From IMG/VR virus record IMGVR_UViG_3300014059_000004: a stretch of 64,000 nucleotides of DNA; one strand, given 5' to 3'. A program made the position numbers and the translations under genes. This DNA is from a virus. Shown piece after piece: positions 2,479 through 41,570 of this stretch (positions are counted from its first letter, which is position 1; each line of letters starts with the position of its first letter). The notes beneath the pieces were generated by a model. The model saw only the letters and a list, made by a program, of their open reading frames with translations, was not told the origin of the DNA and did not search any database.

Positions 2479-2508
2479 GTTGCACATCTTACTGCCAGAG
2501 CCATAAGA

Positions 2509-6029: not shown

Positions 6030-7254
6030 ACCTGCCAAGGTTGTTGCGGGTGAAGAACCTGCAAAGAAGAAAGCTGCAAACAGCGACGTTGACGATCTTA
6101 CGACTGAGATCATCAAGTCCATCAACAAAGAGTTCGGTCAACGTGTAGCGTACAACCTATCAGTAGACGAAGCGCCCACCAACGTGAAGCGTTGGTTGGA
6201 CACTGGTTCTATTCAGCTGAATTACGCTATCAGAAATGCTGCTGGAGGTGGTTATCCTGAAGGTCGAGTAATCGAGATTTCTGGACCACCGTCGATAGGT
6301 AAATCACACCTAGCGTACCACGCTGCTGCCATCGTCCAAGGGATGGGTGGGCTGGTCGTTTACATTGACACTGAGAATGCAACGCCAGTTGAGAAGCTTA
6401 AGAACGTTGGCATCAACGTTGCAAAGAGGTTCGTGTACTGCGATGCACATTGCACTGAAGAAGTATTTTCGATCATCGAATCTACTATCTTGAAGGCAAA
6501 GCAAGTCATGGACAAGAACGTTCCAATTCTTGTCATATGGGACTCAGTGGCAGCAACATCACCGAAGGCAGAACTAGACGGTGATTACGATCAAAACACA
6601 GTTGGTTTGCAAGCCAGAGTCATCAGCAAAGGCATGAGAAAGATCACTGGTGTGATCGGTCAGAATAACGTGACCCTGCTATGCCTCAACCAACTTCGAA
6701 CCGCTATCGGTGTAATGCACGGAGATCCAGACATCACGCCGGGCGGAAAATCGATTCCTTACCACGCAACGCTCAGAATCAGGCTTTCTTCTGGAACGCA
6801 AGTTAAAGATAGCAGCGGAAATGTCATTGGCATCCATGTCATCATGACGACGAAGAAGAACAAAGTCGCACCTCCTTTTAGGAAGTACGAATTTGACGTC
6901 ATCTTTGGCAGGGGAATTTCTGAGCACACTTACATCTTTGACGAACTTCGATCACACTGTGAAAAGAACGCTGTGACGATCGATCACAAGGATAGCAAGG
7001 GAAACGTTGAAAAGCTTCAGATCACCATTGAAGGTACACAAGCCTGGAAGACGCTGAAAGTTTTCAGCACCGTGACTGGAGAAGTTCTCATCGAGAAGAA
7101 GTTCCAAAAGAACAATTTTGATGAGATAATGGCAGATCCAGTGTATAAGCCATTCATTGACAAAGCCATAGAAGAGACGTACACTGTTCACGGTGGTGAT
7201 CCAGATTCGTCCGGTGAATCACCTTCGGAAGAAGAGGTCCTCGATGAAAGTTGA
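6022..7254 (+). CDS. uvsX: UvsX/RecA-family recombinase
   Basis: Walker A 'GPPSIGKSH'. RecA-fold core 'LVIWDSVAAT' and 'LLCLNQLR'. Overall length and architecture of UvsX. Confidence 0.75.
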   Translation: MAKPAKVVAGEEPAKKKAANSDVDDLTTEIIKSINKEFGQRVAYNLSVDEAPTNVKRWLDTGSIQLNYAIRNAAGGGYPEGRVIEISGPPSIGKSHLAYHAAAIVQGMGGLVVYIDTENATPVEKLKNVGINVAKRFVYCDAHCTEEVFSIIESTILKAKQVMDKNVPILVIWDSVAATSPKAELDGDYDQNTVGLQARVISKGMRKITGVIGQNNVTLLCLNQLRTAIGVMHGDPDITPGGKSIPYHATLRIRLSSGTQVKDSSGNVIGIHVIMTTKKNKVAPPFRKYEFDVIFGRGISEHTYIFDELRSHCEKNAVTIDHKDSKGNVEKLQITIEGTQAWKTLKVFSTVTGEVLIEKKFQKNNFDEIMADPVYKPFIDKAIEETYTVHGGDPDSSGESPSEEEVLDES

Positions 7255-7765
7255 AGTTCTCTACGATGGTCCGGCTGCTCCGGAGTACAAGACGCCTGGA
7301 GCAGCTGGGTGCGATCTGTACGCTGACGAGCACCAGATCGTCCTAGCAGGAAAGACAACGATCATCTCTACGGGACTTCGGCTTGCGATCCCAGAGGGAT
7401 ACGAAGGTCAAGTCAGGTCAAGATCAGGTCTTGCAACGAAAGGCGTGTTCGTTCTGAACTCTCCTGGTTGCATTGATTGTTTTTCGGGTGATTCGAAGAT
7501 TAGTACTCTTAATGGAAAAATGAGCATACATGATCTTCGAATCAATGATCATATTCATTCATTCAATGAATCAACGCATGAAATAGAAAGTGATATTGTC
7601 ACTGCCATTGTTGATGTGGGCGTAAGAGATGTTATCATTTTTCGCCTAGATGATAATACTACAATGTCTTTGACACCTGGAACGCTTGTATATACTAGCG
7701 CCGGCTTGAAGAGAGCTGATCAATTGACGTCATCTGATGAAATACTGGTTGACCATGATAGTTAG
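7244..7765 (+). CDS. dut: dUTPase N-terminal extein fused to a split-intein N-fragment (IntN, nt 7478-7762)
   Basis: dUTPase motifs 'AAGCDLYA' and 'IPEGYEGQVRSRSGLA'. Motif 3 'GCID' is then interrupted by intein block A 'CFSGDSKISTL'. The ORF ends at a TAG stop. The ATG overlaps the uvsX stop. Confidence 0.7.
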   Translation: MKVEVLYDGPAAPEYKTPGAAGCDLYADEHQIVLAGKTTIISTGLRLAIPEGYEGQVRSRSGLATKGVFVLNSPGCIDCFSGDSKISTLNGKMSIHDLRINDHIHSFNESTHEIESDIVTAIVDVGVRDVIIFRLDDNTTMSLTPGTLVYTSAGLKRADQLTSSDEILVDHDS

Positions 7766-8791
7766 TTATCATGGTCAAATGTTTGATATGCAACGTTGAA
7801 AAACCCTATTCTATCGTTGAACATCTACGTTGTAAGCACAAATTGTCAGTTGAAGCTTATCGTAAACAATTTGCCAACGCAGAAGTGAAATCTGCGTTGG
7901 CAATTGAAGCCATTTCTAAGCAACATAAGCTTGTTTGGCAAGATGAATCATACAAGCAAAAGATGCGTGCGTCTCGACAACGCACGCATCGTACAGATGA
8001 ATTTCGTAAAAAACAATCTGATATCATTAAAAGTACATACGCCCATGGGCATAGAACTTGGAATGATGGTCTGACAAAAGATTCGGATGAAAGACTGTCT
8101 TTGATTGGAAAAAAGAATTCAGAACATTTGACAGGCAGAACAAAAGATACACATGATTATCTTAAAGGAAAAAGTGTTTTCATGAAGAAATTTCATGAGG
8201 ATAATCCCGGTGTCTTTGTTCATAATAGAATTAATTGGTCAGAAGAACGAATAAAAGAATGGAAGGAAAAAATAAGTTCATCAGTTTGTGAAGCTTACCA
8301 TGATGGCAGATGTGGCAGTTCATATCGATATATCAAAGGTTGGTTCGAAACGAAAGATTCTAAAAGAGAACATTATGATTCATCATGGGAACTTTCTTTG
8401 ATGGAATTCTTGGAATCATTGAATGTTACGTGGACAAAAGCACATCGAATTACGATTGATTATCAATTTAATGGTAATAGAAGATACATTCCTGATTTTT
8501 TGATATCTTGGCGTGGTAAAAATTTGCTGCTTGAATTGAAGGGTTATGTTTCATCACAGATTGAACTTGATGAAAAAACTCAAGCAGCTAAAATTTGGTC
8601 AGAGAAACAAAACATGTGTTTTTCACTGTGTCATAGCGTAAACGAAGCAAAAGATGTCATTTGTAAATTTATGACGGAGGCAAATGAAACTAGCAAAAAT
8701 TGTTAATATTGAGCGTTCTACTGATCGTTGTTATGATTTGACCGTTGAAAACAATCATAATTTTTTCTGTAATGATGTTCTGATTCATAAC
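7478..8791 (+). mobile_element. fractured-gene element: split intein (IntN/IntC) with an interposed homing-endonuclease gene inserted in dut motif 3
   Basis: Intein block A sits after dut 'GCID'. IntC ends 'HN' followed by 'C-DYRG'. Joining the exteins restores canonical 'GxIDxDYRG'. Confidence 0.65.
7771..8706 (+). CDS. free-standing homing endonuclease between split-intein halves (Zn-finger N-terminus, PD-(D/E)xK Vsr-like C-terminus)
   Basis: 'CLICNV...HLRCKH' zinc finger. C-terminal '[18 protein letters not shown]' PD-(D/E)xK signature. Different reading frame from both dut halves. Confidence 0.5.
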
Positions 8792-9079
8792 TGTGATTAC
8801 AGAGGCGTTGTGAAAGTCATATTGCACAACGTAGGGTCATCGACATTTACTGTCAACAAAGGAGATAGGATAGCCCAGCTTGTAATTACGCCGATTATTC
8901 GAGCGTCATTCTCGCACTCTCGTGAGCTGCCAGAAACCGCTCGTGGAGCCGGTGGGTTTGGTTCAACTGGTACGTTAACTGATCTGTACTTGGGTCTTTG
9001 CGTTGATTACAGTTCAACATCTCTACACAAGGTGTTAAATGGACGAAAAATCAACGCAAAGACCCATTTTGATATATGA
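8684..9079 (+). CDS. dut: split-intein C-fragment (IntC, 36 aa) fused to dUTPase C-terminal extein
   Basis: '[36 protein letters not shown]' closely resembles DnaE-type IntC (cf. '...VYDIGVERDHNF...ASN'). It is followed by +1 Cys and dUTPase motif 3 'DYRGVVKV' and motif 4/5 'VITPI...[10 protein letters not shown]'. Confidence 0.7.
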
Positions 9080-10022
9080 CGCAATGAACAGCTTCGTGCG
9101 TGCATATGCAGCGTTTCCCGCAATGAACGTCAATGGTGAAGCTATGGGAGGCTGCGTTGGATTCTTGAAGACGCTTCGCAAGCTTGTTAACGAATACTCA
9201 CCATCTGCTGTGTACATCGCTTGGGAAGGTGGTGGATCGCAGAGAAGAAGAGCTCTGTTCTCAGAATACAAGATGAATCGACGACCAGAGAAGTTGAATC
9301 GATTCTATGAAGATGAAATACCAGATTCTGAAGAGAATCGTCAGCATCAACTGATAGTGCTGCTTAACTTGCTGAAGCACGTGCCAGTTTGTCAACTTTA
9401 TGTCTCTGATTGCGAAGGCGATGATCTTGTAGCTTACCTTGCACGGCAGAAATTTAAGAACGTTGACAAGATCATCGCTTCGTCTGACAAGGATATGTAC
9501 CAGCTCCTTGACGAGCAGACGAAGATCTACAATTTTCACAAGAAGATCATTGTGACAGGTGATGACATCTTGAATGAGTACAAGATCAAGCCGGGAAACT
9601 TTGGTCTAGCGAAAGCGTTGTGCGGTGATCCGTCTGACAACATCCCTGGTTTGAAGGGATTTGGGTTCAAGACAGCGTCTCGCGTTCTTCCGTTCTTGCA
9701 GCTTCAAGATGACATTCTTGTCAGCGATGTGATCGATTACTGCAATTCACACTATGACGAGTCAAAGTTGTACCAACGTGTTGTCGAAAATCAGGATCTT
9801 TTGAAGAGAAATTGGCGCCTCGTTCATCTAGACGGCAGCATGCTGTCCGCTGCTCAGGCTTCCAAAGTAGATCAATTGATCAGTACATACGTCCCACGTA
9901 GTGATAGGATCAGCTTTACTCGAGGGCTTATGAAGGAAGGCATCAATGATTTTGATGTTGCTGATTTCTTCATGACCTTCAACTGCATCGAGAACGTGGA
10001 AAATAGGACTAAAGAAAAATGA
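9039..10022 (+). CDS. 5'-3' exonuclease / RNase H (FEN family, T4 rnh-like)
   Basis: N-terminal '[14 protein letters not shown]' and '[10 protein letters not shown]...[14 protein letters not shown]', then '[11 protein letters not shown]'. The acidic clusters are typical of the FEN/PIN nuclease fold. A helix-hairpin-helix region '[18 protein letters not shown]' follows. Confidence 0.7.
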
Positions 10023-10807
10023 ACGATGACATCAAGCCGACAACGCAAGCTTCATTCGCACAGTATGGAAAGTCCTTCCAAGAAAAGCTGTGCCAAGCGC
10101 TGCTCGTTGACAAGCAGTTTGCAGAGCAGATGCTGGAGGTGTTTAACGTAACGTACCTAGAACCAAAGTACTTGGTGTTCCTTGCTGAACGTTATTTTTC
10201 GTACGCTCAGAAGTACAAGGTGTTTCCAACCATGCAGCTGCTCATCACCATCATCAGGGATGAGCTGAAGATTGGCACTGACGTTGTCATCAGAGATCAG
10301 ATAGTAGATTACTTGCAACGCATGCGTTCTAATCCTGACGTTGGAGATCTTCAGTACGTCAAGGAAAAGGCGCTCGATTTCTGCAGGAAGCAAGCTCTGC
10401 GCAGCGCGCTTGAAGAAGCAGTTGATCAGATCCAGGCTGAGAAGTACGAATCGATCGTTGAGGGTATCAAGAAGGCTGTGATGGTTGGAACTGCTCCGCA
10501 GTTGGGTCATGATTTCTTTGCTGATTATGAGAGTCGCTTCACTAAGTTGTCAAGGAATGCAATCGCCACAGGTCTTCCAGAGCTAGACAAGAAAGATATC
10601 TTGAATGGCGGCTTGGGGTCCGGCGAGCTAGGTTGCGTTGTTGGTGCGACTGGAACAGGAAAGTGTGTTCATCGTAATACTTACATTCAGGTAAAATATA
10701 CTGGGGTGAGAATCGATGGAAAACTATACAAGCCTTGGGATCGAATTGCAACAAAACGCGGAATCATCTTTGCTAGAGATGTCATCGAATCAGACGAGCT
10801 TGAGTGA
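10019..10807 (+). CDS. replicative helicase (DnaB/gp41-like) N-terminal part ending in Walker A, fused to a short intein N-fragment (nt 10664-10804)
   Basis: Walker A 'GATGTGK' is immediately followed by 'CVHRNTYIQV...' (intein block A). A stop follows after 47 intein residues. Confidence 0.55.
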   Translation: MNDDIKPTTQASFAQYGKSFQEKLCQALLVDKQFAEQMLEVFNVTYLEPKYLVFLAERYFSYAQKYKVFPTMQLLITIIRDELKIGTDVVIRDQIVDYLQRMRSNPDVGDLQYVKEKALDFCRKQALRSALEEAVDQIQAEKYESIVEGIKKAVMVGTAPQLGHDFFADYESRFTKLSRNAIATGLPELDKKDILNGGLGSGELGCVVGATGTGKCVHRNTYIQVKYTGVRIDGKLYKPWDRIATKRGIIFARDVIESDELE

Positions 10808-12318
10808 AAAATTCAAGTGTCAACATTGTTATCAACAATACAACAACCAGTCTGGTTTGATTACGCATATTCGACGCAAACATTCAACAACATTCACAGA
10901 TTACAAGTTGAAATTTGCGCATCTTTACAAAGTTGAAAAAAGAGAGAAAAAACTTAGTCTAAATGAACTAGCTAGACGTAAACGTGATGAAAAAGCTATT
11001 GATGATGGACTTAAAGTTTTGAAGTGCGAAATTTGCAATTATGAATCTTACTATTCTTTGATATCGCACATCGTAAGAAAACACGGTGTTGACATGAAGG
11101 AATATCGATCAAAGTATCCCTCAACTGTCGTGCAGCAAGTTACATCAGACATTAGGGAGAAAAATAAGAAGAATGCAACATTGCATCTTTCAGATCCGAT
11201 CAAGAAAGCAAACTTTCTAAAACGAAGATCTTTTCCCTCTGAGATGAAACATTGGATCAATAAGGGATTTTCATCAGATGAAGCAAAGAAAAAAGTTGCT
11301 GAATTTCAACAAAAGATTGCGCTTAAAGGCAATAATGAAAAAACGAAGGCAAAGCAGTCAATTAGAAATTCTGGTCAAAATAATCCAATGTCATTGACGT
11401 CAATTTCGAAACGCATGGGTGTTTCGAAGAATGAAGCAAGCAAATTGACGCCGTGTTATGGAAGATCAGGGTTTAAACACCCGATGTTTGGAAAAAAACA
11501 CAGCGTTGAAGCTTTGAACAAAATTGGTCGGCACATTAATCATACTGGTCGTTCGAAAATTGAACATGAAATGTCTGATTTGATCATTGCATTGTACGGT
11601 GGTCTAAAGAATGTTGGAGTCAACGGTTGGTGTTGTGATTACGTTAATCATAATCACCAAATCATAGTTGAATTTTTTGGTGATTATTGGCATCACAACC
11701 CAGAAAAATATGATAGAAATTTTGTCAACAACTTTACTAAACGTTCATCTGAAGAAGTTTGGTCACGTGATGCACGAAAATTGAATGAACTTAGAGAGAG
11801 TGGTTATAACGTTGTTGTGATCTGGGAATCTGATTGGCGAAACAAAAAAGAAGTCTGTTTGAACAGGATAAAAGATGCTTTCAATAGAACATTGTGAAGT
11901 TGTTGAAGTTGTTAAAATTGGTGATCTGTTTGATGATATTGGATTTGATGATAAATCTACTGTTGATGACTCTGGTGATTCATTCATTCCAAATGAATGG
12001 TCGATAGAAGTTAGATCACTTGACACTTTTTATCCTATAGATGGTTTTCGTTGGACAAAACCTGAACAGCAAGTGAAGTTGACATATGGCAAAGAATCTT
12101 CTTTGCAATGCTCACCAGAACACATTGTTTTGAAGTATTCTTCTACAGAAACTCAATGGACAAAAGTCAATGATCTATCGCCGGGTGATGACATTGTCAC
12201 TGTTAATGGCATTTGTACGATTGATTCGATTGATAATCTCGAGGAAATTGATCGTCTTTGCGATTTTCAAGTATCAATTGCGCACTCTTATTATGCTGAC
12301 GGTGTGTTGTCACATAAC
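10664..12318 (+). mobile_element. fractured-gene element: atypically split intein (47-aa N-fragment) plus homing-endonuclease gene inside the helicase P-loop
   Basis: The three pieces are in three different frames. The extein junction reconstitutes 'GTGK-S'. Confidence 0.5.
10716..11897 (+). CDS. free-standing homing endonuclease (C2H2 zinc fingers plus Vsr-like PD-(D/E)xK nuclease) between intein fragments
   Basis: 'CQHCYQQY...HIRRKH' and 'CEICNYES...HIVRKH' C2H2 fingers. C-terminal 'IIVEFFGDYWHHNP...VVVIWESDW' Vsr-like motif. Confidence 0.55.
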   Translation: MENYTSLGIELQQNAESSLLEMSSNQTSLSEKFKCQHCYQQYNNQSGLITHIRRKHSTTFTDYKLKFAHLYKVEKREKKLSLNELARRKRDEKAIDDGLKVLKCEICNYESYYSLISHIVRKHGVDMKEYRSKYPSTVVQQVTSDIREKNKKNATLHLSDPIKKANFLKRRSFPSEMKHWINKGFSSDEAKKKVAEFQQKIALKGNNEKTKAKQSIRNSGQNNPMSLTSISKRMGVSKNEASKLTPCYGRSGFKHPMFGKKHSVEALNKIGRHINHTGRSKIEHEMSDLIIALYGGLKNVGVNGWCCDYVNHNHQIIVEFFGDYWHHNPEKYDRNFVNNFTKRSSEEVWSRDARKLNELRESGYNVVVIWESDWRNKKEVCLNRIKDAFNRTL

Positions 12319-13116
12319 TCTCATTTCTTGACGTTCTTGGGTGCAATGGCGCTGAGGAACAACGTTGATGTTCTTCACTACACGTTCGAGCTATCAGAGA
12401 CTCAAGTTGGTATCAGGTACGATTCTAACTTGTGTGACATTGATTCGAATGCTGTCATTGACAGCAAGGATCGTATTCTTACTAAGTACGCAGAGCAAAA
12501 GCTGGGACGCTTGATCATCAAGTACTTTCCGACGAACACGGCTAGCATCTACACGCTTCGAAGTCACATCGAGCGCCTCGGAACGAAGGGTTTCAGGCCA
12601 GGATTGATCATCATCGACTATGCTGACATCATGAGATCAACTCGTCAGTTCGATTCTTTGAGACACGAGCTTAAGCTCGTTTACGAAGAACTAAGAGGAA
12701 TGGCTGGCGAGCTAGGAATCCCAGTGTGGACAGCGAGCCAGAGCAACAAAGAGGGAGCGACAAGCGAGATCATCGACATGGGAAACATGTCTGAAGCTTA
12801 CGGCAAGGCGATGATCGCTGACGTGATCGTCAGCATCTCTAGGCGCGCTCACGAGAAGTCAACGGGTCAAGGTCGATTGTACGTTGCAAAGAATCGTGCA
12901 GGGCGCGATGGTCTTGTTTACCCGTTGCACATTGACACCTCAAAGAGCAACTTTGAGATCTTGGGTGGACCGGGTTCTTTGGACGTCGCCATGAAGGAGA
13001 ACGAATCTGACATTAAGAAAGTTCTTCGTTCAAAGTGGAACGAGATGAGAAATGATCCAATCATCGGCGAAAATCTAAAAAGAGGAAGCGATTCTAGCGA
13101 TGACACGGGTTCTTGA
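11875..13116 (+). CDS. intein C-piece (148 aa, contains block B and terminal 'SHN') fused to helicase C-terminal RecA-like domain
   Basis: 'LTYGKESSLQCSPEHIVL' (block B-like)...'YYADGVLSHN|S', then helicase motifs 'LIIIDYADIM' and 'GIPVWTASQSNKEG'. Confidence 0.55.
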   Translation: MLSIEHCEVVEVVKIGDLFDDIGFDDKSTVDDSGDSFIPNEWSIEVRSLDTFYPIDGFRWTKPEQQVKLTYGKESSLQCSPEHIVLKYSSTETQWTKVNDLSPGDDIVTVNGICTIDSIDNLEEIDRLCDFQVSIAHSYYADGVLSHNSHFLTFLGAMALRNNVDVLHYTFELSETQVGIRYDSNLCDIDSNAVIDSKDRILTKYAEQKLGRLIIKYFPTNTASIYTLRSHIERLGTKGFRPGLIIIDYADIMRSTRQFDSLRHELKLVYEELRGMAGELGIPVWTASQSNKEGATSEIIDMGNMSEAYGKAMIADVIVSISRRAHEKSTGQGRLYVAKNRAGRDGLVYPLHIDTSKSNFEILGGPGSLDVAMKENESDIKKVLRSKWNEMRNDPIIGENLKRGSDSSDDTGS

Positions 13117-33340: not shown

Positions 33341-34351
33341 ATGTCGAAGAAAGTTCTGATCACGGGTATCGCTGGTTTTCTTGGTTCGCATCTTGCGTTG
33401 CATCACATCGCAGCCGGTGATGAGGTGATCGGTCTGGATGATTTCTCTTCGTCGAAGAGAGATTCTCTTCATCTTGCTACGATCAAGCGCCTCATGGCAG
33501 AGAAGAAGTTGGGGGAAGTCTATGAGTGCGACATTGCAGAGCAGAAGCAGGTTCATTACTGCTTGCAGAAGCACGCAATGAAAAAGTCACCAGCGGGAAT
33601 TGATCTGATCTATAACTTCGCTTGCCCTGCTTCACCGCCTCGATACCAACAGATTCCAACGAAGACGATGATGACATGCGTGGCCGGAACTAACAACATC
33701 ATCGACGTTGCTATGTGTAACAATTCTGTAGTTGTGCACGCCTCAACGTCTGAAGTGTACGGCGATCCGGATATCACTCCTCAAGTTGAATCTTATAGGG
33801 GTTGCGTGAACCCTTACGGTCCCCGAGCATGCTACGATGAAGGCAAGCGCGCAGCAGAAGCGTTGTGCTACGATTCTCTTTTCAAGTACGGCGTAGACGT
33901 ACGTCTCGTTAGAATATTCAACACGTATGGCCCTCATCTTGATGTAACAGACGGACGTGTAGTTTCAAACTTTATAACTCAAGCCTTGTACAACAAAGAT
34001 ATCACAATCTATGGTGATGGTTCTCAAACAAGGTCATTTTGTTACGTAGATGATCTGATACGTGGAATTGTTTCTTTGGGAGCCTTGAGCTACAATCCAA
34101 AAACGCCCATTAATTTGGGAAATCCAAATGAGTTTACCATTAAAGAACTTGCAGATGTTGTTATGTCTTTGATTCCAAGTAGCAAATCAAAATTTGTATG
34201 GCAGTCCATACCTATTGATGATCCACTTCAGAGAAAACCAGATATTACTATAGCGAAAGAAATTCTTAAATGGCAACCGAGTGTGCAATTGCTGGAAGGT
34301 CTTCAGAAGACGATACACTACATTCAGAACGTGAATGTGCAATTTACGTGA
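33341..34351 (+). CDS. NAD-dependent sugar-nucleotide epimerase/dehydratase (UDP-glucuronate decarboxylase-like SDR)
   Basis: 'VLITGIAGFLGSHL' Rossmann motif. 'TSEVYGDP'. Catalytic 'YDEGK' (YxxxK). Confidence 0.65.
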   Translation: MSKKVLITGIAGFLGSHLALHHIAAGDEVIGLDDFSSSKRDSLHLATIKRLMAEKKLGEVYECDIAEQKQVHYCLQKHAMKKSPAGIDLIYNFACPASPPRYQQIPTKTMMTCVAGTNNIIDVAMCNNSVVVHASTSEVYGDPDITPQVESYRGCVNPYGPRACYDEGKRAAEALCYDSLFKYGVDVRLVRIFNTYGPHLDVTDGRVVSNFITQALYNKDITIYGDGSQTRSFCYVDDLIRGIVSLGALSYNPKTPINLGNPNEFTIKELADVVMSLIPSSKSKFVWQSIPIDDPLQRKPDITIAKEILKWQPSVQLLEGLQKTIHYIQNVNVQFT

Positions 34352-34998
34352 TCACTAACAATGTTAATAACAAACGATATGTTGGGAAATCTGTTCAGCC
34401 AACTAGACGTTGGCTTGGGCACAAATCTTATGCCCGACGTGGTGATCTAAGAAGATTGTATTGTTCGATGCGAAAACATGGCGTTGAACAGTTCAAATTT
34501 GAAATATTGACGTGGTGTGATAGTGAAGACGCTGCTTTTCTTGAAGAAAAAAGAATAGTAACTGAGTGGAATCTATGTGATCCACGTGTAGGTTATAACT
34601 TGACTAGTGGTGGTCGTGGTGGATGTAGAGTGTCAGATCAAGTACGTCATAGAATGAAATTGCGTGAACCTTCAATGAAGGGTCGTAAACACACTGAAGA
34701 AACAAAGCGTCTATTGTCAATAGCTAGCTCTGGTGCTAATAATGCAAATTTTGGTAAACATAAAAGTGATGAAACTAAGCAAAAAATGAGTGATTCACAA
34801 AAAGGTCGTAAATTTACTGATGATCATCGTGAAAAGCTACGCCAGGCGAAGCTTGGAAAAAAGACAGGACGTAGTATACCACCAGAAATGGCTATAGCAA
34901 GAAGAAATATGAAAGGAACTATCGAGGCAAAAGAAGCTGCTAAATTGGGTTGGATAACACGTCGTGCCAAAATTAATGATGATACTGTAAATCAGTAA
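34270..34998 (+). CDS. free-standing GIY-YIG homing endonuclease
   Basis: 'IYVITNNVNNKRYVGKS...RRWLGHKS' GIY-YIG. Repeated basic NUMOD-like modules. Confidence 0.55.
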   Translation: MATECAIAGRSSEDDTLHSERECAIYVITNNVNNKRYVGKSVQPTRRWLGHKSYARRGDLRRLYCSMRKHGVEQFKFEILTWCDSEDAAFLEEKRIVTEWNLCDPRVGYNLTSGGRGGCRVSDQVRHRMKLREPSMKGRKHTEETKRLLSIASSGANNANFGKHKSDETKQKMSDSQKGRKFTDDHREKLRQAKLGKKTGRSIPPEMAIARRNMKGTIEAKEAAKLGWITRRAKINDDTVNQ

Positions 34999-35085
34999 AT
35001 TTATCGACATTTAACGAAAACTTAGTGTGAACTTGCGCTGTCACGAGCCTTACAATGTAAGGTAAGACGAATTACATGACACCGA

Positions 35086-35136
35086 AACGATTTGTTGGTC
35101 TTCATAATCACACGTGCTTTTCTTAGTGGCTCCTAT
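35086..35136 (+). CDS. 16-codon ORF 'MTPKRFVGLHNHTCFS' matching the DnaE PHP-domain N-terminus (displaced original dnaE start?)
   Basis: ATG with upstream 'taaggtaag'. 85% nt identity to 35972-36024, with differences at wobble positions. Ends TAG immediately after the Ser codon. Confidence 0.35.
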
Positions 35137-35164
35137 GGATTATTAGGTGGTCATCTAAATTAAA

Positions 35165-35926
35165 GTGAAGTATATTCATGGTGTTGAAGCCATGAAATCA
35201 AGAGAAAAAGTTTGTGACTGGTGCCATAATCCTTTTATTGATAAATCAAAAGGTAATTGGTGCCGCACATGTTCAAAAAACTGTCGTAATCAACTTCGAA
35301 CGCAAAATATGAGAAAAGGTGGCGCATTTGAATGGGATGAAGAACGACGTAAGAAAATTGGTGAAATAACCAAACAGAATCTACTTTCAGGAAAAGTAGA
35401 AAATCCGTGGTCTCGTAATGAGGTCAAAGAAAAAATTCGTCAGACGAACCTTAAAAAGTTTGGTGTTTCGAACTGGAGACAGACGAAAGAGGGTCGTGAA
35501 AGAACTATTACGTTCAATAAGAAACGAATTCGTTCGCGAGAAGAACGTCGAAAACATAGTGATAATGCTCGAAAACAAATGAAAGGTGGTCTCAAATCAC
35601 GAGGAAAGGCCGGGAAGCGAGATGATCTTCCTGGATTTTATCGCAGTCCATGGGAGGCAAATTACGCACGAATTCTTATCCACCAGGGAAAATCTTGGCT
35701 ATATGAACCGAAAACGTTCGAGCTCGCAAGTGGGATTTCTTACACGCCAGATTTCTATGTTGATGGTTGTTTCATTGAAATCAAAGGCTGGATGGATGAT
35801 CGGTCGAAACGTCAACTCGACGAATTTACAATTGAGTATCCAAACGAGAGGTTGCAAATTGTTGGTCCGAAGGAATATTATAGCCTTCGACAACAATACG
35901 CGTCATTGATTAAGGAATGGGAATGA
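35165..35926 (+). CDS. free-standing homing endonuclease (Zn-finger N-terminus, PD-(D/E)xK C-terminus) inserted at the dnaE 5' end
   Basis: 'CDWCHNPF...CRTCSKNC'. Repeated basic modules. 'PDFYVDGCFIEIKG'. Confidence 0.5.
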   Translation: MKYIHGVEAMKSREKVCDWCHNPFIDKSKGNWCRTCSKNCRNQLRTQNMRKGGAFEWDEERRKKIGEITKQNLLSGKVENPWSRNEVKEKIRQTNLKKFGVSNWRQTKEGRERTITFNKKRIRSREERRKHSDNARKQMKGGLKSRGKAGKRDDLPGFYRSPWEANYARILIHQGKSWLYEPKTFELASGISYTPDFYVDGCFIEIKGWMDDRSKRQLDEFTIEYPNERLQIVGPKEYYSLRQQYASLIKEWE

Positions 35927-36924
35927 AAATTAACGATTCAAACAACAGAAAGGAGGTATCCCTAGAAAACTCTGTGCGCACTCCGAAGCGATTTGTTGGT
36001 TTGCATAATCACACAGGGTTTTCGTAGGGGATTTAATCACCCTTTGACGGCCTCGGATACCCGAACGAACATTTCGATTTTTGTCGTGAGAATGGTCTTG
36101 ATGCTCACGCAATTACTGAGCACGGTAACATGAACAGTTACGCTCATGCTCAACTCGCAGTTGAAGATTGGAATAAAGCAAACCCAAAACTTCCTTTCAA
36201 GTACATTCCGGGTTGTGAAATGTACTTTCACCCAAGCTTGAAGCAGTGGGAAGTTGACAAGCTTCGTGCTGAAGAAGCCCTGGTCGATAAGAAAGCAGCA
36301 GCGAAGCTCCTGAAGGAGCAGGAAAAGCTGCAGACAAAGATCATTGCTGTCGTCGATGAAGCGGATGAAACCGAAGACATCGAGATGACCAATGCTCTGA
36401 CAGTTGAAAATGAAGACGAGTCAAAGTCAACGAAGCACTTCAATCCCGTCAACCGTCGTCATCACCTTGTTGTTCTGCCAAAGAACCAGCAGGGCTTGCT
36501 GTCCATTTTCTCTGCGTGCTCGAAAGCGTACATGCAGGGTTTTTACAGATTCCCTCGCATCGACTTGGAGATGCTGAAGGAAGCAGGAAAAGATCGTAAC
36601 ATCGTTGTCACTTCTGCATGCATTCATCCAGATTCAATTGTGATCACCAATTGTGGTTCAATGAAGATTGTTAATCTAGTTGAACATGTAAAAAATGGCA
36701 CTGAAATTTCGGTGTTGTCATATGATCATGACACAAACCAACTTGTTTTTAAGAAAGTTACTTGGGCTGATAAAACAAGAGAACAAGCAAAAATTGTTCG
36801 AATTAAGCTTAAAAATGGTGCAACATTGCGGGTAACGCCTGATCACAAAGTCTATACTAAACGTGGTTGGGTAGAAGCACAAGAACTTCTGAAAACAGAT
36901 CATATACTGTCAATCCACCAATAG
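35923..36924 (+). CDS. dnaE: DnaE (Pol III alpha) N-terminal PHP-domain segment plus split-intein IntN (36619-36921); reading frame interrupted by in-frame TAG (36025-27) and TAA (36034-36) 15 nt apart; conventional ORF resumes at 36130
   Basis: 'RFVGLHNHTGFS'-[tag ggg att taa tca]-'PFDGLGYPNEHFDFCRENGLDAHAITEHGNM...HLVVLPKNQQGLLSIF...IVVTSA|CIHPDSIV' aligns with the DnaE PHP N-terminus. All parts are in one frame. Confidence 0.45.
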
Positions 36925-38009
36925 TTATTGGTGGACAACTATGAGAAAATTTGATTCTAAAAAGAAAGCACTAGCTCGTCAAGAATTTCTTGACTCTCTA
37001 ACTCATGTAGGTCTGACGACGGTTGAATTGAAGCGCCTGGCATCAGACCTACATTATAGTTTGTCTATGATTTATGATCTAATTGTGAGAGATCACAATG
37101 ATATTGTTACACGTTTTCGTTTTTCAAAACGATCAATTGTAAATCTGTTTCATAAACTAGGCATAGTTCATAACAATAAACTTTACTTGAGATTGCCTCA
37201 AGAAGTTAAGTTGCAGTTCAAATATCCTAAGGGAACTTCTCTTGAAGAGATAAAAAAGATCTGTTCACAACAATCTTCAAAAGGTGCTAAGACTACTCAT
37301 CGTATTAGAAAGGCATGGGATGCATACACGCCCAAAAATAATACTGAATATTATCTCAATAAAGGATATTCTCTTGACGAAGCAAATGTTAAATCGTCAG
37401 CCTTTCGAAAAAGTAAGTCTCCATTCTCAAGATCATTTTCGAACTATCAACAGCTTGCTGCTGATGACGTTCTAGAACTAATTCGTGAACTCTCAAGAAA
37501 TAGAGGGCTTAAAGGGCTTGTTAGTATGCGTGCTCGCAATTCGAAACTCGAATTGCGAGTTGTATCTGAATTGCTAAACAAAGATATTCATTGTGAAACA
37601 CAGAAAATTTTGGGCAAATTTGCATATGATGTTTTTGTACCAAGATTCAATCTGATCATTGAAGTAAATGGAACGTACTGGCACGCAGATCCACGCGTTT
37701 ATAACGCTGATGATCTAATTCAATTTCCGTACGGGCAAGTTAAGGCAAGTGAAAAATGGTCAAAAGATGAGATAAAGTTGGCTTATGCCAGATCAATTGG
37801 CTATAATGTTTGTGTGTTGTGGGAAGCGGACTTGAAAAAAGAAGGTTACCTTGACGAATTCATCAAATCAATCAATGACAGCTATGCAGATGACAACTGA
37901 ATTCGTTGAAATTGACAGCATTTCCATTGACGAAGAAACACCTGACGTATATGACATAACAGTTGAAGATACACATTGTTTTTTTGCTGATGGTTCGCTA
38001 GTCCATAAT
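36619..38009 (+). mobile_element. fractured-gene element in dnaE: split intein plus interposed homing-endonuclease gene
   Basis: The extein junction restores DnaE 'TSA-C-IGG' ('S[AG]C' motif). The three ORFs are in three frames. Confidence 0.6.
36941..37900 (+). CDS. free-standing homing endonuclease (Vsr-like PD-(D/E)xK) between dnaE split-intein halves
   Basis: 'IIEVNGTYWHADP...VCVLWEADL' Vsr-like motif. Confidence 0.5.
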   Translation: MRKFDSKKKALARQEFLDSLTHVGLTTVELKRLASDLHYSLSMIYDLIVRDHNDIVTRFRFSKRSIVNLFHKLGIVHNNKLYLRLPQEVKLQFKYPKGTSLEEIKKICSQQSSKGAKTTHRIRKAWDAYTPKNNTEYYLNKGYSLDEANVKSSAFRKSKSPFSRSFSNYQQLAADDVLELIRELSRNRGLKGLVSMRARNSKLELRVVSELLNKDIHCETQKILGKFAYDVFVPRFNLIIEVNGTYWHADPRVYNADDLIQFPYGQVKASEKWSKDEIKLAYARSIGYNVCVLWEADLKKEGYLDEFIKSINDSYADDN

Positions 38010-41000
38010 TGCATCGGCGGGTTTCCCTCTTGGAGCGTATTCCAAGTGCTTCAGGGAATTTCGTTCGATAATCTCAACCAGTCGCTCCTTGACGACAAGG
38101 CTCTTCTTGATAAGTGCGTTGATGCTGTCGGAAATACGTACGACATGATGGTGTCTGCGGTTGGTGAAGGAAATTACTTCCTCGAGCTGCAGTTCAACCG
38201 TCTGCCGGCGCAGAACCTTGTCAACCGTGCAATCATTGAGTTTGCAACCAGAAATGGTTTGCAAAAACAACTTGTTGTCACTGGGGATGCGCACTACTAC
38301 AATCCAGACGTTTGGAAGGAGCGCGAGCTCTACAAAAAGCTGGGTTGGATGAACTACCAGACGATCGATCCCAATTCACTTCCAAAGTCTCGAGATGAGC
38401 TGAAGTGCGAACTTTACCCAAAGAACGCGCCTCAGATGTGGGATGAGTACTTGAAGTCGAAGGTCGATACGTCTTTTTACGATGATCAGATCATCTGTGA
38501 TGCAATTGAGCGAACCCACGACATCGCGCATCACCTCATTGGTGAGGTTAAACCAGATCGATCGCAAAAGTTTCCAACTGAGCGCCTCATCCCACCGGGT
38601 GAGAAGTCATTCAACCATCTCGTGAAGTTGTGCAAGGATGGGATGGTGAAGCGGGGGCTCGATGGCAAGGATGAATACCTTGATCGTTTGAAAGAAGAGC
38701 TCGGCGTCATCAAGCAGATGAAGAATGCTGACTACTTCATCTCGTACCAAAAGATCATCGAGCTAGCTCGAAAAGTTGTCCTACTTGGTCCTGCGCGAGG
38801 TAGTGGTGGAGGTTCTCTGGTGAATTATGTGCTTTACATCACTGATCTCGATCCAGTCAAGTGGGATCTACCATTTTCGAGATTTCTTTCTGTGCACCGC
38901 GTCGGTGCACCAGACATTGATAGCGACGTTGCTGATCGTGACAAGGTTCTTGACCAGCTACGTAATTTCTTTGGTTATGAGAACGTTGTTCCAATCTCGA
39001 ACTACAACGCCTTCAAGGTGAAGAGTCTCTTGAAGGACATCAGCAAGTTCTATGGGATTCCGTTCGATGAAGTCAACGCAGCGACTAGAACTGTCGAAGA
39101 CTCTGTTCGCCGCGCAACGATGAAGGAAGGTGATGACAAGAACCTATTCGTGCTCACGTACGATGAGGGTTTGAAGTACGACAAAGCATTTTCAGACTTC
39201 ATTGCGCGGCACCCTGAGGTTGGCGAATCTATGAACGTTCTGTTCAAGCAGAATCGTTCTCTTGGTCGCCATGCAGGTGGCGTTCTAATTGCTGATGACC
39301 TTCCAAACAAGATGCCGCTGATCACCAGCAAGGGTGAACCGCAGAGTCCTTGGGTCGAAGGCGTCAACTTCAAGCACCTTGAGAAGATCGGAAATTTCAT
39401 CAAGTACGACATCCTTGGTCTTGAAACGTTGAGGTTGATCGAAAGAACGATCGAGCTAATCCTCATCAAAGAGGGAAATGCAGCCCCGACGTTCGATGAC
39501 ATTAAGACGTGGTATGAAAATAACATGTCGCCCGACGTCATCGATCTTGACGATCAAGAAGTCTTCAAGGTATATAGCGAAGGAAGACATGCTGGTATAT
39601 TTCAGCTAACGTCGAAGGGTGCTCAGCAACTTTTCAAGAAAGCTCGACCAAAGAGCATCATCGATATCGCGGCTTTGACGTCTATTTATCGACCAGGTCC
39701 GCTAGCAGCTCACGTTGACAAGCTGTGGTTGAAGCATGAAGTTGAACCGTACGATTGGGGTCATCCACTTATTAACGCCACACTAGAAAAAACACGTGGT
39801 CTGCTAGTGTTCCAAGAGGGCGTCATGGCCCTTGTCAACAAAGTTTCAGGTTTTCCGTTGTCTGAAACTGATGAAGTTCGTAGAGCTATCATGAAGCGCA
39901 GCATCTCAGGTGGTGAGGCTGCGAAGAAGAAGATGAAGGAGCTTGAAGACAGCATTGTTGCTGGTGCTGTGAAGAACGGTGTTCCGGAAGCAACTGCTCG
40001 CAAGATGTATGAAACTATATGTTTTATGAGTGGCTATGGCTTCAATGCGTCTCATGCTGTTGCTTATGCCATTGATTCGTACTGGTGTGCCTGGTTGCTA
40101 ACGCACTACGAAGAGCAATGGTTGTGTGCTTATCTCGAGTCGATGTCAAACACCCCAGAACAACGAGCAAAAGCTTTCAGCGAAGTGAAGGCTTTGGGCT
40201 ACCAGATCGTCCCAATCGATATCAACCAAGCTGCGTTGGGCTGGACTGTGCTGCCTGGCAAGAAATTGATGCCATCGATGACAAGCTGCAAGGGTGTTGG
40301 TGATTCAGCAGTTGAAGAAATCATGGAAAACAGACCTTACGAGACAATTGAAGATCTGTTGTGGGATGATGAATTCAACTGGAAACACAGCAAGTTCAAC
40401 AAGAGGGCTCTAGAAGCTCTCATCAAGATCGGTGCATTTGGTTCAATGAACATCGTTGGCGAAGGTAAGCTCTTCAGCAGCTACAAGCACATGCACGATG
40501 TCATCGTTGGATCTCACGTTGAGACAGTGACAAAGAAGAGGAAGGGAGAAGTTTCAACGTTCGAAGCTGAGATAGATCATAACGCTCTGATAAAGCGACA
40601 TCCCAAGAGCGATCCAACTGAAGGTTTGAAGAACTTCTTTGAGCTTGTTCGAAAGTACGCCGGGCAACCTGATTGGTCTTCTATCGAGAAGACTCAAAAC
40701 ATGGTTGAAGTGTTCGGCACCTTGGATGTGACAGCGATGATCGATCCTCGGTTGCTCGATGCCCTAGATGGGAAGGGTGTAGTTCCAGTCGAAGATGTTG
40801 AGCTCGGCGAGATAAAAGTTTGCTGGTTTGTCGTCACTCCTACTTCACCCAAGAAGGGTGCAAAGCCCGTGACTGGCGTGAAGCGCAAGACAAAGAACGG
40901 AAAAGAGTACGTTCAGCTCTTTGCAACCGGTCCGACAGGCAAGCCAAATCGCATCAGCGTGTGGGGTTGCAAAGAGCTGCTTCAACCGTTCACGTTGTAC

Positions 41001-41183
41001 TGCGCTGAAGTTGAGAGGAACGAGTTTGGAATGTCGACTGCGGTGTTCAAGATGAGAAAATTGGGATTAGCGCTTGCTGCCCATCTTCAGATTCTTGGAA
41101 TCATTAGCGCTCCAGTTGTATCCACCGCCGACAGCGCCGGGTCCACCACCATGAGAGAATCCAGTTGGATTTCCCCATGCTGA
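37851..41183 (+). CDS. dnaE: split-intein IntC (about 37890-38009) fused to DnaE (Pol III alpha) C-terminal extein (palm, fingers, beta-binding, OB)
   Basis: 'VYDITVEDTHCFFADGSLVHN|CIGG'. Then 'LGPARGSGGGSLVNYVLYITDLDPVKW', 'GAPDIDSDV' and 'GIFQL' DnaE signatures. Confidence 0.75.
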   Translation: MTNSSNQSMTAMQMTTEFVEIDSISIDEETPDVYDITVEDTHCFFADGSLVHNCIGGFPSWSVFQVLQGISFDNLNQSLLDDKALLDKCVDAVGNTYDMMVSAVGEGNYFLELQFNRLPAQNLVNRAIIEFATRNGLQKQLVVTGDAHYYNPDVWKERELYKKLGWMNYQTIDPNSLPKSRDELKCELYPKNAPQMWDEYLKSKVDTSFYDDQIICDAIERTHDIAHHLIGEVKPDRSQKFPTERLIPPGEKSFNHLVKLCKDGMVKRGLDGKDEYLDRLKEELGVIKQMKNADYFISYQKIIELARKVVLLGPARGSGGGSLVNYVLYITDLDPVKWDLPFSRFLSVHRVGAPDIDSDVADRDKVLDQLRNFFGYENVVPISNYNAFKVKSLLKDISKFYGIPFDEVNAATRTVEDSVRRATMKEGDDKNLFVLTYDEGLKYDKAFSDFIARHPEVGESMNVLFKQNRSLGRHAGGVLIADDLPNKMPLITSKGEPQSPWVEGVNFKHLEKIGNFIKYDILGLETLRLIERTIELILIKEGNAAPTFDDIKTWYENNMSPDVIDLDDQEVFKVYSEGRHAGIFQLTSKGAQQLFKKARPKSIIDIAALTSIYRPGPLAAHVDKLWLKHEVEPYDWGHPLINATLEKTRGLLVFQEGVMALVNKVSGFPLSETDEVRRAIMKRSISGGEAAKKKMKELEDSIVAGAVKNGVPEATARKMYETICFMSGYGFNASHAVAYAIDSYWCAWLLTHYEEQWLCAYLESMSNTPEQRAKAFSEVKALGYQIVPIDINQAALGWTVLPGKKLMPSMTSCKGVGDSAVEEIMENRPYETIEDLLWDDEFNWKHSKFNKRALEALIKIGAFGSMNIVGEGKLFSSYKHMHDVIVGSHVETVTKKRKGEVSTFEAEIDHNALIKRHPKSDPTEGLKNFFELVRKYAGQPDWSSIEKTQNMVEVFGTLDVTAMIDPRLLDALDGKGVVPVEDVELGEIKVCWFVVTPTSPKKGAKPVTGVKRKTKNGKEYVQLFATGPTGKPNRISVWGCKELLQPFTLYCAEVERNEFGMSTAVFKMRKLGLALAAHLQILGIISAPVVSTADSAGSTTMRESSWISPC

Positions 41184-41570
41184 TCCCATGCCAGTTCCAC
41201 CACCGCCCGAGCCTGCGAAAGGATTCCTGCCGTGTGCTCCAGCTCTAAATCCTCTGACGCTCTTTGTCACGTTTCTGCCAACAAACTTGAACCCAAGATC
41301 GCCAAGTTCTTTCTTGATGTGCGCAAGATCGCTAGCACCAGCTTCAGAGACTTCCATCTTTGAACCATACTTTGCTTGCGTCATGTTGCGTCCAAGAGCA
41401 TGCAAATCGATGAAGTTGTATTCATAGTTGTCATCATCTAGCTTGCTCTCTATGAAAGCCTCCAATGACATGTATTCAGGATTTTCTCGCAATTCGTTGA
41501 TTTCTTCGTCAAGATCATCCTCAAGCACTTCTGATATCAAACGTCTCAAGGCACCTAGTTGCAGCTTCAT
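41067..41570 (-). CDS. leader-family protein with Gly-rich C-terminus (minus strand)
   Basis: 'MKLQLGALRRLISEVLEDD' leader. C-terminal 'GSGGGGTGMGSAWGNPTGFSHGGGPGAVGGG'. Confidence 0.4.
   Translation of the reverse strand: MKLQLGALRRLISEVLEDDLDEEINELRENPEYMSLEAFIESKLDDDNYEYNFIDLHALGRNMTQAKYGSKMEVSEAGASDLAHIKKELGDLGFKFVGRNVTKSVRGFRAGAHGRNPFAGSGGGGTGMGSAWGNPTGFSHGGGPGAVGGGYNWSANDSKNLKMGSKR

Follow-up and report, generated by a model that had tools for sequence, protein, structure and literature searches.

Fractured genes combine a split intein with a free-standing endonuclease gene, and three DnaE loci, DnaE-1 to DnaE-3, were described among them by Dassa et al. in 2009 (PMC2677866). Another mobile arrangement, the MobA element, consists of an endonuclease gene, an overlapping N-terminal extension, a copy of the deleted target at 67–81% identity and a gap "encoding stops and/or frameshifts", with the landing codon as its end point (bioRxiv 10.1101/2022.08.31.505936). 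The 50-nucleotide (nt) gap of T4 gene 60 protects its carrier from MobA, and in the words of Manning and Atkins the T4 cassette "remains unique" (same preprint). Shorter counterparts of gene 60 have long been presumed to exist (PMC5009743).

Here we analyze dnaE, the gene for a DnaE-type DNA polymerase III alpha subunit, in a viral DNA of 64,000 nt (IMG/VR record IMGVR_UViG_3300014059_000004; hereafter the window, to whose plus strand positions refer unless stated otherwise). A reading made earlier from the letters of the window (the sequence-only reading) had flagged a split intein with a homing endonuclease gene in the PHP domain of this polymerase. That feature is real and widespread; the arrangement was already described in 2009, and the window adds one case together with an empty-site allele. 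At the 5′ end of the gene, just beyond the flagged stretch (36130–41183), lies a second endonuclease cassette, which the sequence-only reading missed and which is the main subject here. On the evidence below, dnaE would have been invaded twice by homing endonuclease elements, each with its own means of restoring the protein: a split intein with trans-splicing in one place and an endonuclease-linked cassette for programmed translational bypass in the other. We consider this combined explanation probable.

A stop-containing gap at the 5′ end of dnaE

The sequence-only reading called the polymerase a complete DnaE. As encoded, however, the window gene is not complete, its 5′ end being broken by the second endonuclease cassette and a stop-containing gap. 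The frame of the N-terminal fragment is open back to 36037, and 36130 is merely its first ATG. Within the first 30 codons after the landing site (36037 to 36130) there is no in-frame ATG, GTG or TTG, and this stretch encodes SPFDGLGYPNEHFDFCRENGLDAHAITEHGN, part of PHP motifs I and II. PHP coding sequence reaches still further upstream, past a 12-nt gap with two stops, to 35923/35974. The region reads ...CGA TTT GTT GGT TTG CAT AAT CAC ACA GGG TTT TCG TAG GGG ATT TAA TCA CCC TTT GAC, in translation RFVGLHNHTGFS-stop-GI-stop-SPFDG. Uninterrupted relatives have RFVGLHNHTGFSPFDG at this site (GFSPFDG, without insert), and the window therefore carries 12 additional nt, two stops included, with a Ser codon on either side: the take-off codon TCG (36022–24), the gap TAGGGGATTTAA (36025–36036) and the landing codon TCA (36037–39), together 36022–36039.

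The cassette spans 35115 to about 36086 and targets codon 16, in PHP motif I (HNHTGFS-PFDG). Upstream it cuts off a remnant of the resident dnaE 5′ end, copy 1 (35076–35126; ATG, MTPKRFVGLHNHTCFS, TAG), a direct repeat that is 82% identical to 35980–36030. The segment 35074–35114 is 100% identical in the related locus L011, whose cassette differs, and the native-like upstream region resembles that of the uninterrupted locus L001. Inside the cassette, homing endonuclease gene 1 (35165–35926, 253 codons) encodes an N-terminal CxxC...CxxxC motif and a T7-endonuclease-I-like PD-(D/E)xK nuclease, as judged from a family profile that matches T7 endonuclease I (1m0d, 7e-7); a single-sequence PDB search was not significant. 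In the family alignment D196, E205 and K207 are invariant and the Cys4 motif is present; relatives of 267–270 amino acids (aa) occupy the same place in other contigs, and the PHROG matches are endonuclease/resolvase families. T7 endonuclease I itself is a Holliday-junction resolvase. Members of the endonuclease 1 family, which has no Pfam entry, lie at 35165–35926 in the window, 1992–2795 in L011, 4146–4949 in L015 and 2438–3247 in L020. The family looks like a homing endonuclease lineage outside those usually listed.

The ATG of a leader open reading frame (ORF), MKINDSNNRKEVSLENSVRTPKRFVGLHNHTGFS (35923–36024), overlaps the TGA stop of endonuclease gene 1 as ATGA. This leader comprises an 18-codon N-terminal extension followed by a divergent copy of dnaE codons 3–16 (RTPKRFVGLHNHTGFS), and it ends at the take-off codon. 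The same architecture is found in L011, L015, L016, L020 and all other gap alleles, each with an N-terminal extension that spans 29–36 codons from ATG to take-off. Conservation of the extension is at the nucleotide level, in a Shine–Dalgarno (SD)-like element and a helix arm read in varied frames, and not clearly at the peptide level.

The gap recurs in related loci. The window, L003, L011–L014, L015, L016, L017 and L020 were found without any gap-based search, and the rest by pattern. In every search-independent allele TAG, TAA or TGA follows directly on a Ser codon; in the pattern-found alleles a stop after a Ser codon is given by the construction of the pattern. L016, 97.7% identical to the window, reads TCG-TAAGGGAATTAA-TCA, with two differences from the window inside the 12-nt gap. 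L011–L014, from four samples, are ~96% identical and read TCT-TAATG-TCA; L011 keeps ~96% identity on both flanks and carries a different cassette version over 35115–36086. L015, with an N-fragment 63% identical at the aa level, has TCG-TGAG-TTG, and the more distant L020 has TCG-TGAAGACACTTAA-TCT, a 13-nt gap. L017, whose N-fragment is 44% identical (aa) and which has no endonuclease gene, reads TCG-TAAAG-TCA; its nearest uninterrupted relative, L018, reads GFSTFDG.

IMG/VR was scanned for FVxLHxHxxFS followed by a stop, a place being counted as genuine if the ORF resumes with S/x-(F/Y/M)DGLGYP within 2–13 nt. This gave 49 places, 39 of them genuine, against 96 for the uninterrupted control pattern, so that roughly 30% of comparable IMG/VR dnaE alleles carry the gap. 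Over 596 gigabases of bacterial and archaeal genomes the same gap pattern also hit 49 places, none genuine. The exact gap sequence of the window had no match in IMG/VR. Altogether 48 gap loci represent 41 unique alleles. Their gaps measure 2–13 nt and fall in all three frames; each opens with a stop, and some hold two (TAATAA, TAGTGA). The landing triplet, whose re-reading would yield the exact protein, is TCN in most gap types, and non-TCN landings share two of three bases with their take-off codon (ACC or GCC after TCC; ACG, GCG or TTG after TCG). In 41 of 41 unique alleles the 30 codons past the landing are open and conserved; the first in-frame start codon usually lies 12–25 codons on or is absent, and the downstream ORFs are full length (1100–1450 aa) or end in intein halves. 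A count of synonymous versus non-synonymous changes over the FVGLHxHxxFS codons was discarded because the search pattern fixes those amino acids.

In ~27 of 42 gap loci the leader directly adjoins a gene of the T7-endonuclease-I-like family, an arrangement seen in none of 75 uninterrupted alleles. Two uninterrupted dnaE loci, L116 and L141, have a family member further upstream, not coupled to dnaE; an AT-rich spacer and the native start separate the two genes, and there is no gap.

A covarying helix and a candidate ribosomal bypass

Around the take-off codon the RNA can form a stem-loop whose 5′ arm (GAAAACTCTGTG, 35965–35976) pairs with a 3′ arm (CACAGGGTTTTC, 36012–36023) that ends inside the codon. 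The minimum-free-energy fold of 35945–36045 reaches −31.5 kcal/mol (z = −3.14), with z = −6.6 and −5.1 for the corresponding whole-region folds of L030 and L041, and the helix continues through the stop and gap (AUCCCU/AGGGGAU) and beyond the landing codon (AAAGG/CCUUU). In 29 of 33 unique alleles the shuffle test supports a helix of 9–14 base pairs (bp) that ends at the take-off codon, although arm sequences differ greatly from one allele to another (GAGAAGGTTGAA/TTCAACCTTCTC, CGAAAATTCAGTG/CACTGGGTTTTCG and others). The median helix score is 11.5 for an allele's own arms and 6.0 when arms are swapped between alleles, where 0.5% of combinations reach 11.5; among 73 uninterrupted alleles it is 5.5 and none reaches 9.

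MAFFT plus RNAalifold on the natural sequences found no structure, because loop-length differences throw the 5′ arm out of register. This approach was therefore replaced by the per-sequence helix search with its controls and by an alignment of 26 alleles built on the helix register, with the loop partly trimmed. In that alignment 89.4% of cells are paired, compared with 74.1% after shuffling, and 47 cells are changed on both sides, compared with 16.5; none of 500 shuffles reaches either value. Compensatory changes occur at 7 of 12 pairs, and slid controls pair 34–54% of cells. The covarying 9–14-bp helix is specific to gap alleles.

An SD-like element, GAAAGGAGGT (35948–35957), lies inside the leader ORF 5–7 nt 5′ of the 5′ arm and is conserved across alleles. 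In most of 37 tabulated alleles it stands 70–85 nt before the stop, a position common to L011, L015, L020, L030, L034, L041 and others, and it is read in varied frames, which points to conservation as nucleic acid. It may fix where landing occurs, a modest effect of the gene 60 element, tether ribosomes, or pause trailing ones.

These features are consistent with a ribosomal hop. With TCG (Ser) decoded and UAG next in the A site, the ribosome would stall at the stop and peptidyl-tRNA-Ser would unpair from TCG; after the mRNA had slid by 15 nt, the tRNA would re-pair with TCA at 36037 and decoding would restart at CCC, giving the exact ...HNHTGFSPFDG.... Refolding of the stem-loop, between the emerging 3′ arm and the free 5′ arm, would favor the forward slide; a 2024 preprint proposes such re-pairing-driven forward movement for gene 60. 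The junction peptide would be FVGLHNHTGFSPFDGLGYPNEHFDFCR in the window and, for example, ...HAHSTFSTFDGLGYPADHIDFVLSESQGMDAWALTDH... among the common alleles. For the endonuclease, the gap would disrupt its probable DNA target within a motif that is immutable at the protein level and so protect the carrier genome; endonuclease 1 would then cut only uninterrupted sites, near CACACNGGNTTYTCN-CCN. From comparative sequence evidence, hopping across the dnaE gap is, on balance, the reading that we favor for the 5′ interruption. With similar, restrained confidence we propose that phage dnaE harbors a large natural family of 2–13-nt stop-hops, assisted by the helix and the SD-like element, spread by the endonuclease as self-immunity and persisting after its loss.

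Stop readthrough or an alternative genetic code was rejected on account of gaps in all three frames, alleles with two stops, and the use of TAG, TAA and TGA alike to terminate ordinary genes near the window dnaE. Frameshifting by +1 or −1 was rejected as well, since the window gap keeps the reading frame and gaps of any length between 2 and 13 nt occur across alleles.

Several points weigh against a hop. Synthetic stop-hops in E. coli were reported to be inefficient, and a weak hop might yield too little of a replicative polymerase. The review of the field knows stop-hops from synthetic constructs only, with no natural in-frame case (PMC5009743). Six gap types match the take-off codon at only two of three landing bases. 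An in-frame ATG overlaps the stop in L011 (TAATG) and L015 has a TTG; some alleles, such as these two, could use reinitiation instead. A simple hop model leaves the SD-like element unexplained, and together with the helix that element could tether ribosomes for reinitiation. The presence of a family A polymerase-like ORF means that damage to DnaE might be tolerated. The helix register behind the pair counts was picked for each sequence and is biased towards structure; the swap and uninterrupted-allele controls are independent of that choice and offset the bias. Finally, the bypass is inferred from sequence throughout.

If the two sides of the gap were never joined, translation would stop at the TAG at 36025, and the rest of the protein would come from reinitiation, with tethering like that at a termination upstream ribosome-binding site (TURBS), or from ATG 36130, leaving a two-piece or truncated PHP domain. 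Split phage enzymes that reassemble non-covalently are known, Aeh1 NrdA being an example (PMC3045599); TAATG in L011–L014 places its ATG in the downstream frame, L015 offers TTG, and the helix would bring the SD-like element, 5–7 nt from its base, beside the stop/restart region. We nevertheless hold such an outcome unlikely. The window, L016, L003 and L015 have no ATG, GTG or TTG within 30 codons past the landing, most other alleles have their first start codon 12–25 codons downstream, and the matched take-off and landing triplets would have no role. A product from 36130 would lack the HxH, the DG Asp and the TEHG His, and the leaders of the pattern-independent alleles keep FVGLHxH with mostly synonymous differences, a constraint not expected of a peptide made only to be discarded. 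It is very improbable that the RNA loses the interruption, whether the 915-nt cassette (copy 1 to the gap end) as an intron or the short gap by splicing, even though copy 1 (...ACG TGC TTT) joined to TCA CCC also gives the correct frame and endonuclease genes often sit inside group I introns, Vsr-like ones in recA. L003, L017 and L040, which have no endonuclease gene, carry a 3–6-nt gap, 3 nt long in L040, and a single 5′ end, and no known splicing system removes such a gap; the last base of the would-be intron is A, not G, in the window, and the 3′ end of copy 1 is decaying, in contrast to copy 2 with its consensus Gly and coupled start. A group I/II intron in particular was rejected: searches at gathering score and at E up to 5 matched no Rfam family, the boundaries do not fit, and the alleles without an endonuclease gene make it unnecessary.

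That the 5′ interruption is damage, with dnaE or its PHP motif I a decaying pseudogene and replication left to family A-like or host enzymes, could be argued from the family A polymerase-like ORF at 2479–3726 and from the heavy load of endonuclease genes in the window. Decay would hardly leave intact downstream ORFs (1100–1450 aa, or with intein-half ends) in all 41 unique gap alleles, open the gap with a stop at exactly the same codon every time, maintain a covarying helix in gap alleles only, or reach ~30% of comparable alleles, and we rate it very unlikely. An assembly artefact or contaminating bacterial DNA is next to negligible as an explanation. Although the window was assembled from one metagenome run (Logan SRR1145916), an independent Joint Genome Institute (JGI) contig, 97.7% identical, has the same 12-nt-gap allele and cassette, dozens of other independent assemblies contain related alleles, and the two 5′ copies share no exact match longer than ~12 nt. 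Host contamination, the outcome that the sequence-only reading had named as fatal to its own claim, is contradicted by flanks of phage genes and by the lack of any genuine gap in the cellular genomes scanned. Programmed bypass, with the reservations above, is the reading that we carry forward for the 5′ cassette.

The split intein and the phage setting of dnaE

The split intein with a homing endonuclease gene that the sequence-only reading placed at TSA/C/IGG is borne out by domain matches to both halves, by uninterrupted relatives and by an empty site. The remainder of the N-extein (36040–36618, PFDGLGYPNEH...VVTSA) carries the PHP domain in the frame open from 36037; the ORF 36130–36924 matches Pfam PHP (3.3e-15), the N-terminal part of Intein_splicing (38.1 bits, cut-off 35.8) and Hint. 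The N-terminal intein half, IntN (36619–36924), has 101 codons (36619–36921; CIHPDS... to ...ILSIHQ) plus TAG, with Cys1 at 36619 and the TPDH block B in ...RVTPDHKVYT.... The C-terminal half, IntC (37875–38009), has 45 codons from the ATG at 37875, where the source-contig gene call also starts, and reads ...VYDITVEDTHCFFADGSLVHN, ending ...SLVHN. Its match to Intein_splicing (positions 119–155; 23.6 bits) is under the whole-domain cut-off, as expected of a fragment, and its end reads GSLVHN-CIGG (38004–38012). Since the uninterrupted relatives L001 and L008 read ...VVTSACIGG... or ...SSACIAG... here, the intein must separate TSA from CIGG, whose Cys is the +1 residue, and the whole element is 36619–38009. 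L016, the JGI contig that is 97.7% identical over 34669–36623, resumes directly at 38010 without 36619–38009, so presence or absence of the intein element is recent. More than 30 PHP–IntN fragments homologous to the window N-fragment (42–94% identity) occur in metagenomes. The two DnaE fragments would be made separately and then joined through protein trans-splicing.

Between the intein halves, homing endonuclease gene 2 (36941–37900, 319 aa) overlaps IntC by 26 nt at its 3′ end. A Pfam scan of its product, N-terminal DNA-binding region included, gave no match, and a single-sequence PDB search gave only a weak, non-significant Vsr match (E = 0.077). A family profile of five relatives matches Vsr (1cw0, 3.3e-5; 1vsr, 9.2e-5) and I-Bth0305I (3r3p, 1.2e-4) over a nuclease domain at about residues 200–310. 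E204, D230, E241, W247, H248 and D276 are invariant in the family alignment, and the retained catalytic Asp, His and Asp (plus Glu) assign the protein, at the level of sequence profiles, to the EDxHD/Vsr-like family defined in PMC3239194. A 9-bp hairpin (36914–36935) spans both the stop of IntN and the ribosome-binding site GGTGGA, 5 nt 5′ of the ATG of endonuclease gene 2; the fold of 36900–36946 (−13.4 kcal/mol, z = −2.08) has modest statistical support.

The C-extein (38010–41183) begins with Cys+1 and contains the remaining PHP sequence, palm, fingers and HhH. In the ORF 37851–41183, Pfam finds the C-terminal part of Intein_splicing (residues 17–53), DNA_pol3_alpha (2.6e-49), DNA_pol3_finger (8.2e-34) and HHH_6 (1.2e-11), and the best solved relatives are Taq DnaE (2hpi, 1.4e-80) and E. 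coli DnaE (2hnh, 3.8e-75). The window polymerase is a DnaE-type Pol III alpha with PHP, palm, fingers and HhH in order, as the sequence-only reading had it; at the C-terminus, where that reading also saw an OB domain, the Pfam scan gave no OB match. The ORF extends ~45 codons beyond the C-terminus of its relatives (...FKMRKLG-LALAAHLQ...; 41050–41183), and the tail overlaps, in antisense, an ORF of 167 codons (41067–41570, minus strand); the length of 1110 aa is equal in L011 and L012.

That the polymerase is phage-encoded likewise stands. Its neighbors are gp32, a RecA/UvsX-like protein, a 5′–3′ exonuclease and many homing endonuclease genes, and its closest relatives lie on eight IMG/VR viral contigs at 64–73% identity. 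The sequence-only reading thought a DnaE unusual for a phage, but phage DnaE is not rare; a tblastn search with the window DnaE matched 1422 GenBank phage records, all below 60% identity, and fractured phage-like DnaE was described in 2009 (PMC2677866). No near-identical DNA was found among GenBank phages. Neither a beta-clamp nor a clamp loader was found among ten other window ORFs scanned, and no tRNA genes were found in the window. The family A DNA polymerase-like ORF at 2479–3726 (Pfam DNA_pol_A, 2e-11, partial) follows an 825-codon ORF (1–2475) without a Pfam match, and the phage seems to encode a PolA-like enzyme as well as DnaE. Upstream of the dnaE locus stands a free-standing GIY-YIG/NUMOD3 homing endonuclease gene (34348–34998; GIY-YIG 5.4e-10, NUMOD3 1.4e-14, also in the source-contig gene call). 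A GIY-YIG endonuclease gene lies directly 5′ of the dnaE start both here and in uninterrupted L001 (4855–5364), and this junction may be a separate homing hot spot.

Other genes of the window and other sites in dnaE are also broken. The window dut is fractured by an intein and a TnsA-like endonuclease gene, and a helicase-like gene is fractured too (7172–9076 and 10013–13113); the helicase endonuclease (395 aa, NUMOD3/zinc-finger/Vsr-like) matches MTES_1575/NUMOD3. With the Vsr-like enzyme in dnaE, these agree with the earlier view that the interposed endonucleases are Vsr-like or PD-(D/E)xK. The further claim that dnaE, dut and the helicase share one IntC family fits dut, whose IntC is similar (ending before C), but not the helicase, whose intein is split atypically (IntN ~46 aa, IntC ~150 aa, Ser +1). 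In the dnaE relatives L005 (5365–10376), L006 and L007, a GIY-YIG-like ORF (L005 7571–8758) splits the gene after ...IERTIELII. No canonical intein is present there; the N piece has a 50-residue tail (EKNGGIIELEIDGVKHRLL...) and the C piece a short new N-terminus, and this may be a non-intein split like that of Aeh1 nrdA. Many relatives carry a second split intein in the palm, between GPARG and C (P0031, P0051; L020 3362–5008; L040, L057, L070), recognizable from ...CF(V/T)PETRVLM... to ...RGW(V/I)EAQHL...; the window has no palm intein and reads GPARGSGGGS. This dnaE family thus has at least three intein/endonuclease insertion sites. In L016 (2048–3216) the sequence diverges from the window just after ...LLDDKALL, the ORF stops 20 codons on and a 128-codon ORF follows; L016 dnaE carries some other insertion there.

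Comparison with known systems

The fractured-gene class gave the fast gp41-1 and NrdJ-1 split inteins, and as a further member the window split intein is useful but expected. As in the genes of Dassa et al., both dnaE halves are adjacent on one strand (36037–36924 and 37875–41183) with a Vsr-like endonuclease gene between them (36941–37900), the downstream fragment starts inside the end of the endonuclease ORF, and the start of that ORF is closely preceded by a hairpin. Their DnaE is phage-like, and the DnaE-2 endonuclease has its Vsr domain at residues 196–315, as in the window; the likeness to DnaE-1 to DnaE-3 is one of described arrangement. The 5′ gap is absent from that paper, which mentions bypassing only as an unlikely alternative to trans-splicing (PMC2677866). 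With the cyanobacterial split DnaE inteins (Ssp and Npu DnaE) the window shares a DnaE made as two polypeptides and a naturally split intein, whereas the insertion point differs and the cyanobacterial halves sit at separate loci without an endonuclease gene. Endonuclease 2 has a C-terminal Vsr-like catalytic domain like that of I-Bth0305I (PMC3239194), but it is free-standing between intein halves and not, as that enzyme is, in a recA group I intron.

Of the two features, the 5′ cassette is the more important. It shares with T4 mobA/gene 60 an endonuclease gene, an overlapping extension (compare the N-terminal extension, NTE, plus HomR), a divergent copy of the target, a gap that opens with a stop and an end at the landing codon. 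A landing codon that matches the take-off codon, a stem-loop 5′ of and at the take-off, an SD-like element, derivatives that lost the endonuclease gene and kept the gap, and a gap inside a highly conserved protein motif are likewise common to both. They differ in target (dnaE PHP motif I as opposed to the topoisomerase II large subunit), in endonuclease (T7-endonuclease-I-like PD-(D/E)xK as opposed to the HNH enzyme MobA), in gap length (2–13 nt against 20–50 nt) and in codon (Ser UCN against Gly GGA). The upstream piece of dnaE is a dead stub of 13–16 codons, whereas its T4 counterpart is a functional subunit; in dnaE the SD-like element precedes the helix, while that of gene 60 is inside the gap, and the dnaE cassette is known from sequence. 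Differing in endonuclease fold, target gene, codon and gap length, the dnaE cassette does not belong to the MobA family.

In its proposed mechanics the dnaE case resembles the synthetic E. coli stop-hops and the Magnusiomyces mitochondrial bypass elements (PMC5009743), in which re-pairing takes place nearby over a slow A-site codon, across short distances, in any frame and with imperfect matches tolerated. Those are synthetic, or context-independent in relaxed mitochondria, while in dnaE a dedicated RNA structure covaries and the gap is tied to a mobile element. Until now, essentially a single element, T4 gene 60, has stood for efficient programmed bypass in bacteria and phages, and the literature searched holds no dnaE bypass. 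If the reading proposed here is right, T4 mobA/gene 60 would be joined by a second bypass cassette linked to an endonuclease and of independent origin, phage dnaE would provide the first series of stop-hops known from nature, and bypass would be a recurrent answer for a homing endonuclease that needs to break its own target inside an immutable protein motif. The ~40 natural variants would form a mutational series on slide distance, on the re-pairing needed and on RNA folding at the exit side as a driver; for annotation, gene calls probably show ~30% of comparable phage dnaE genes wrongly as truncated or split.

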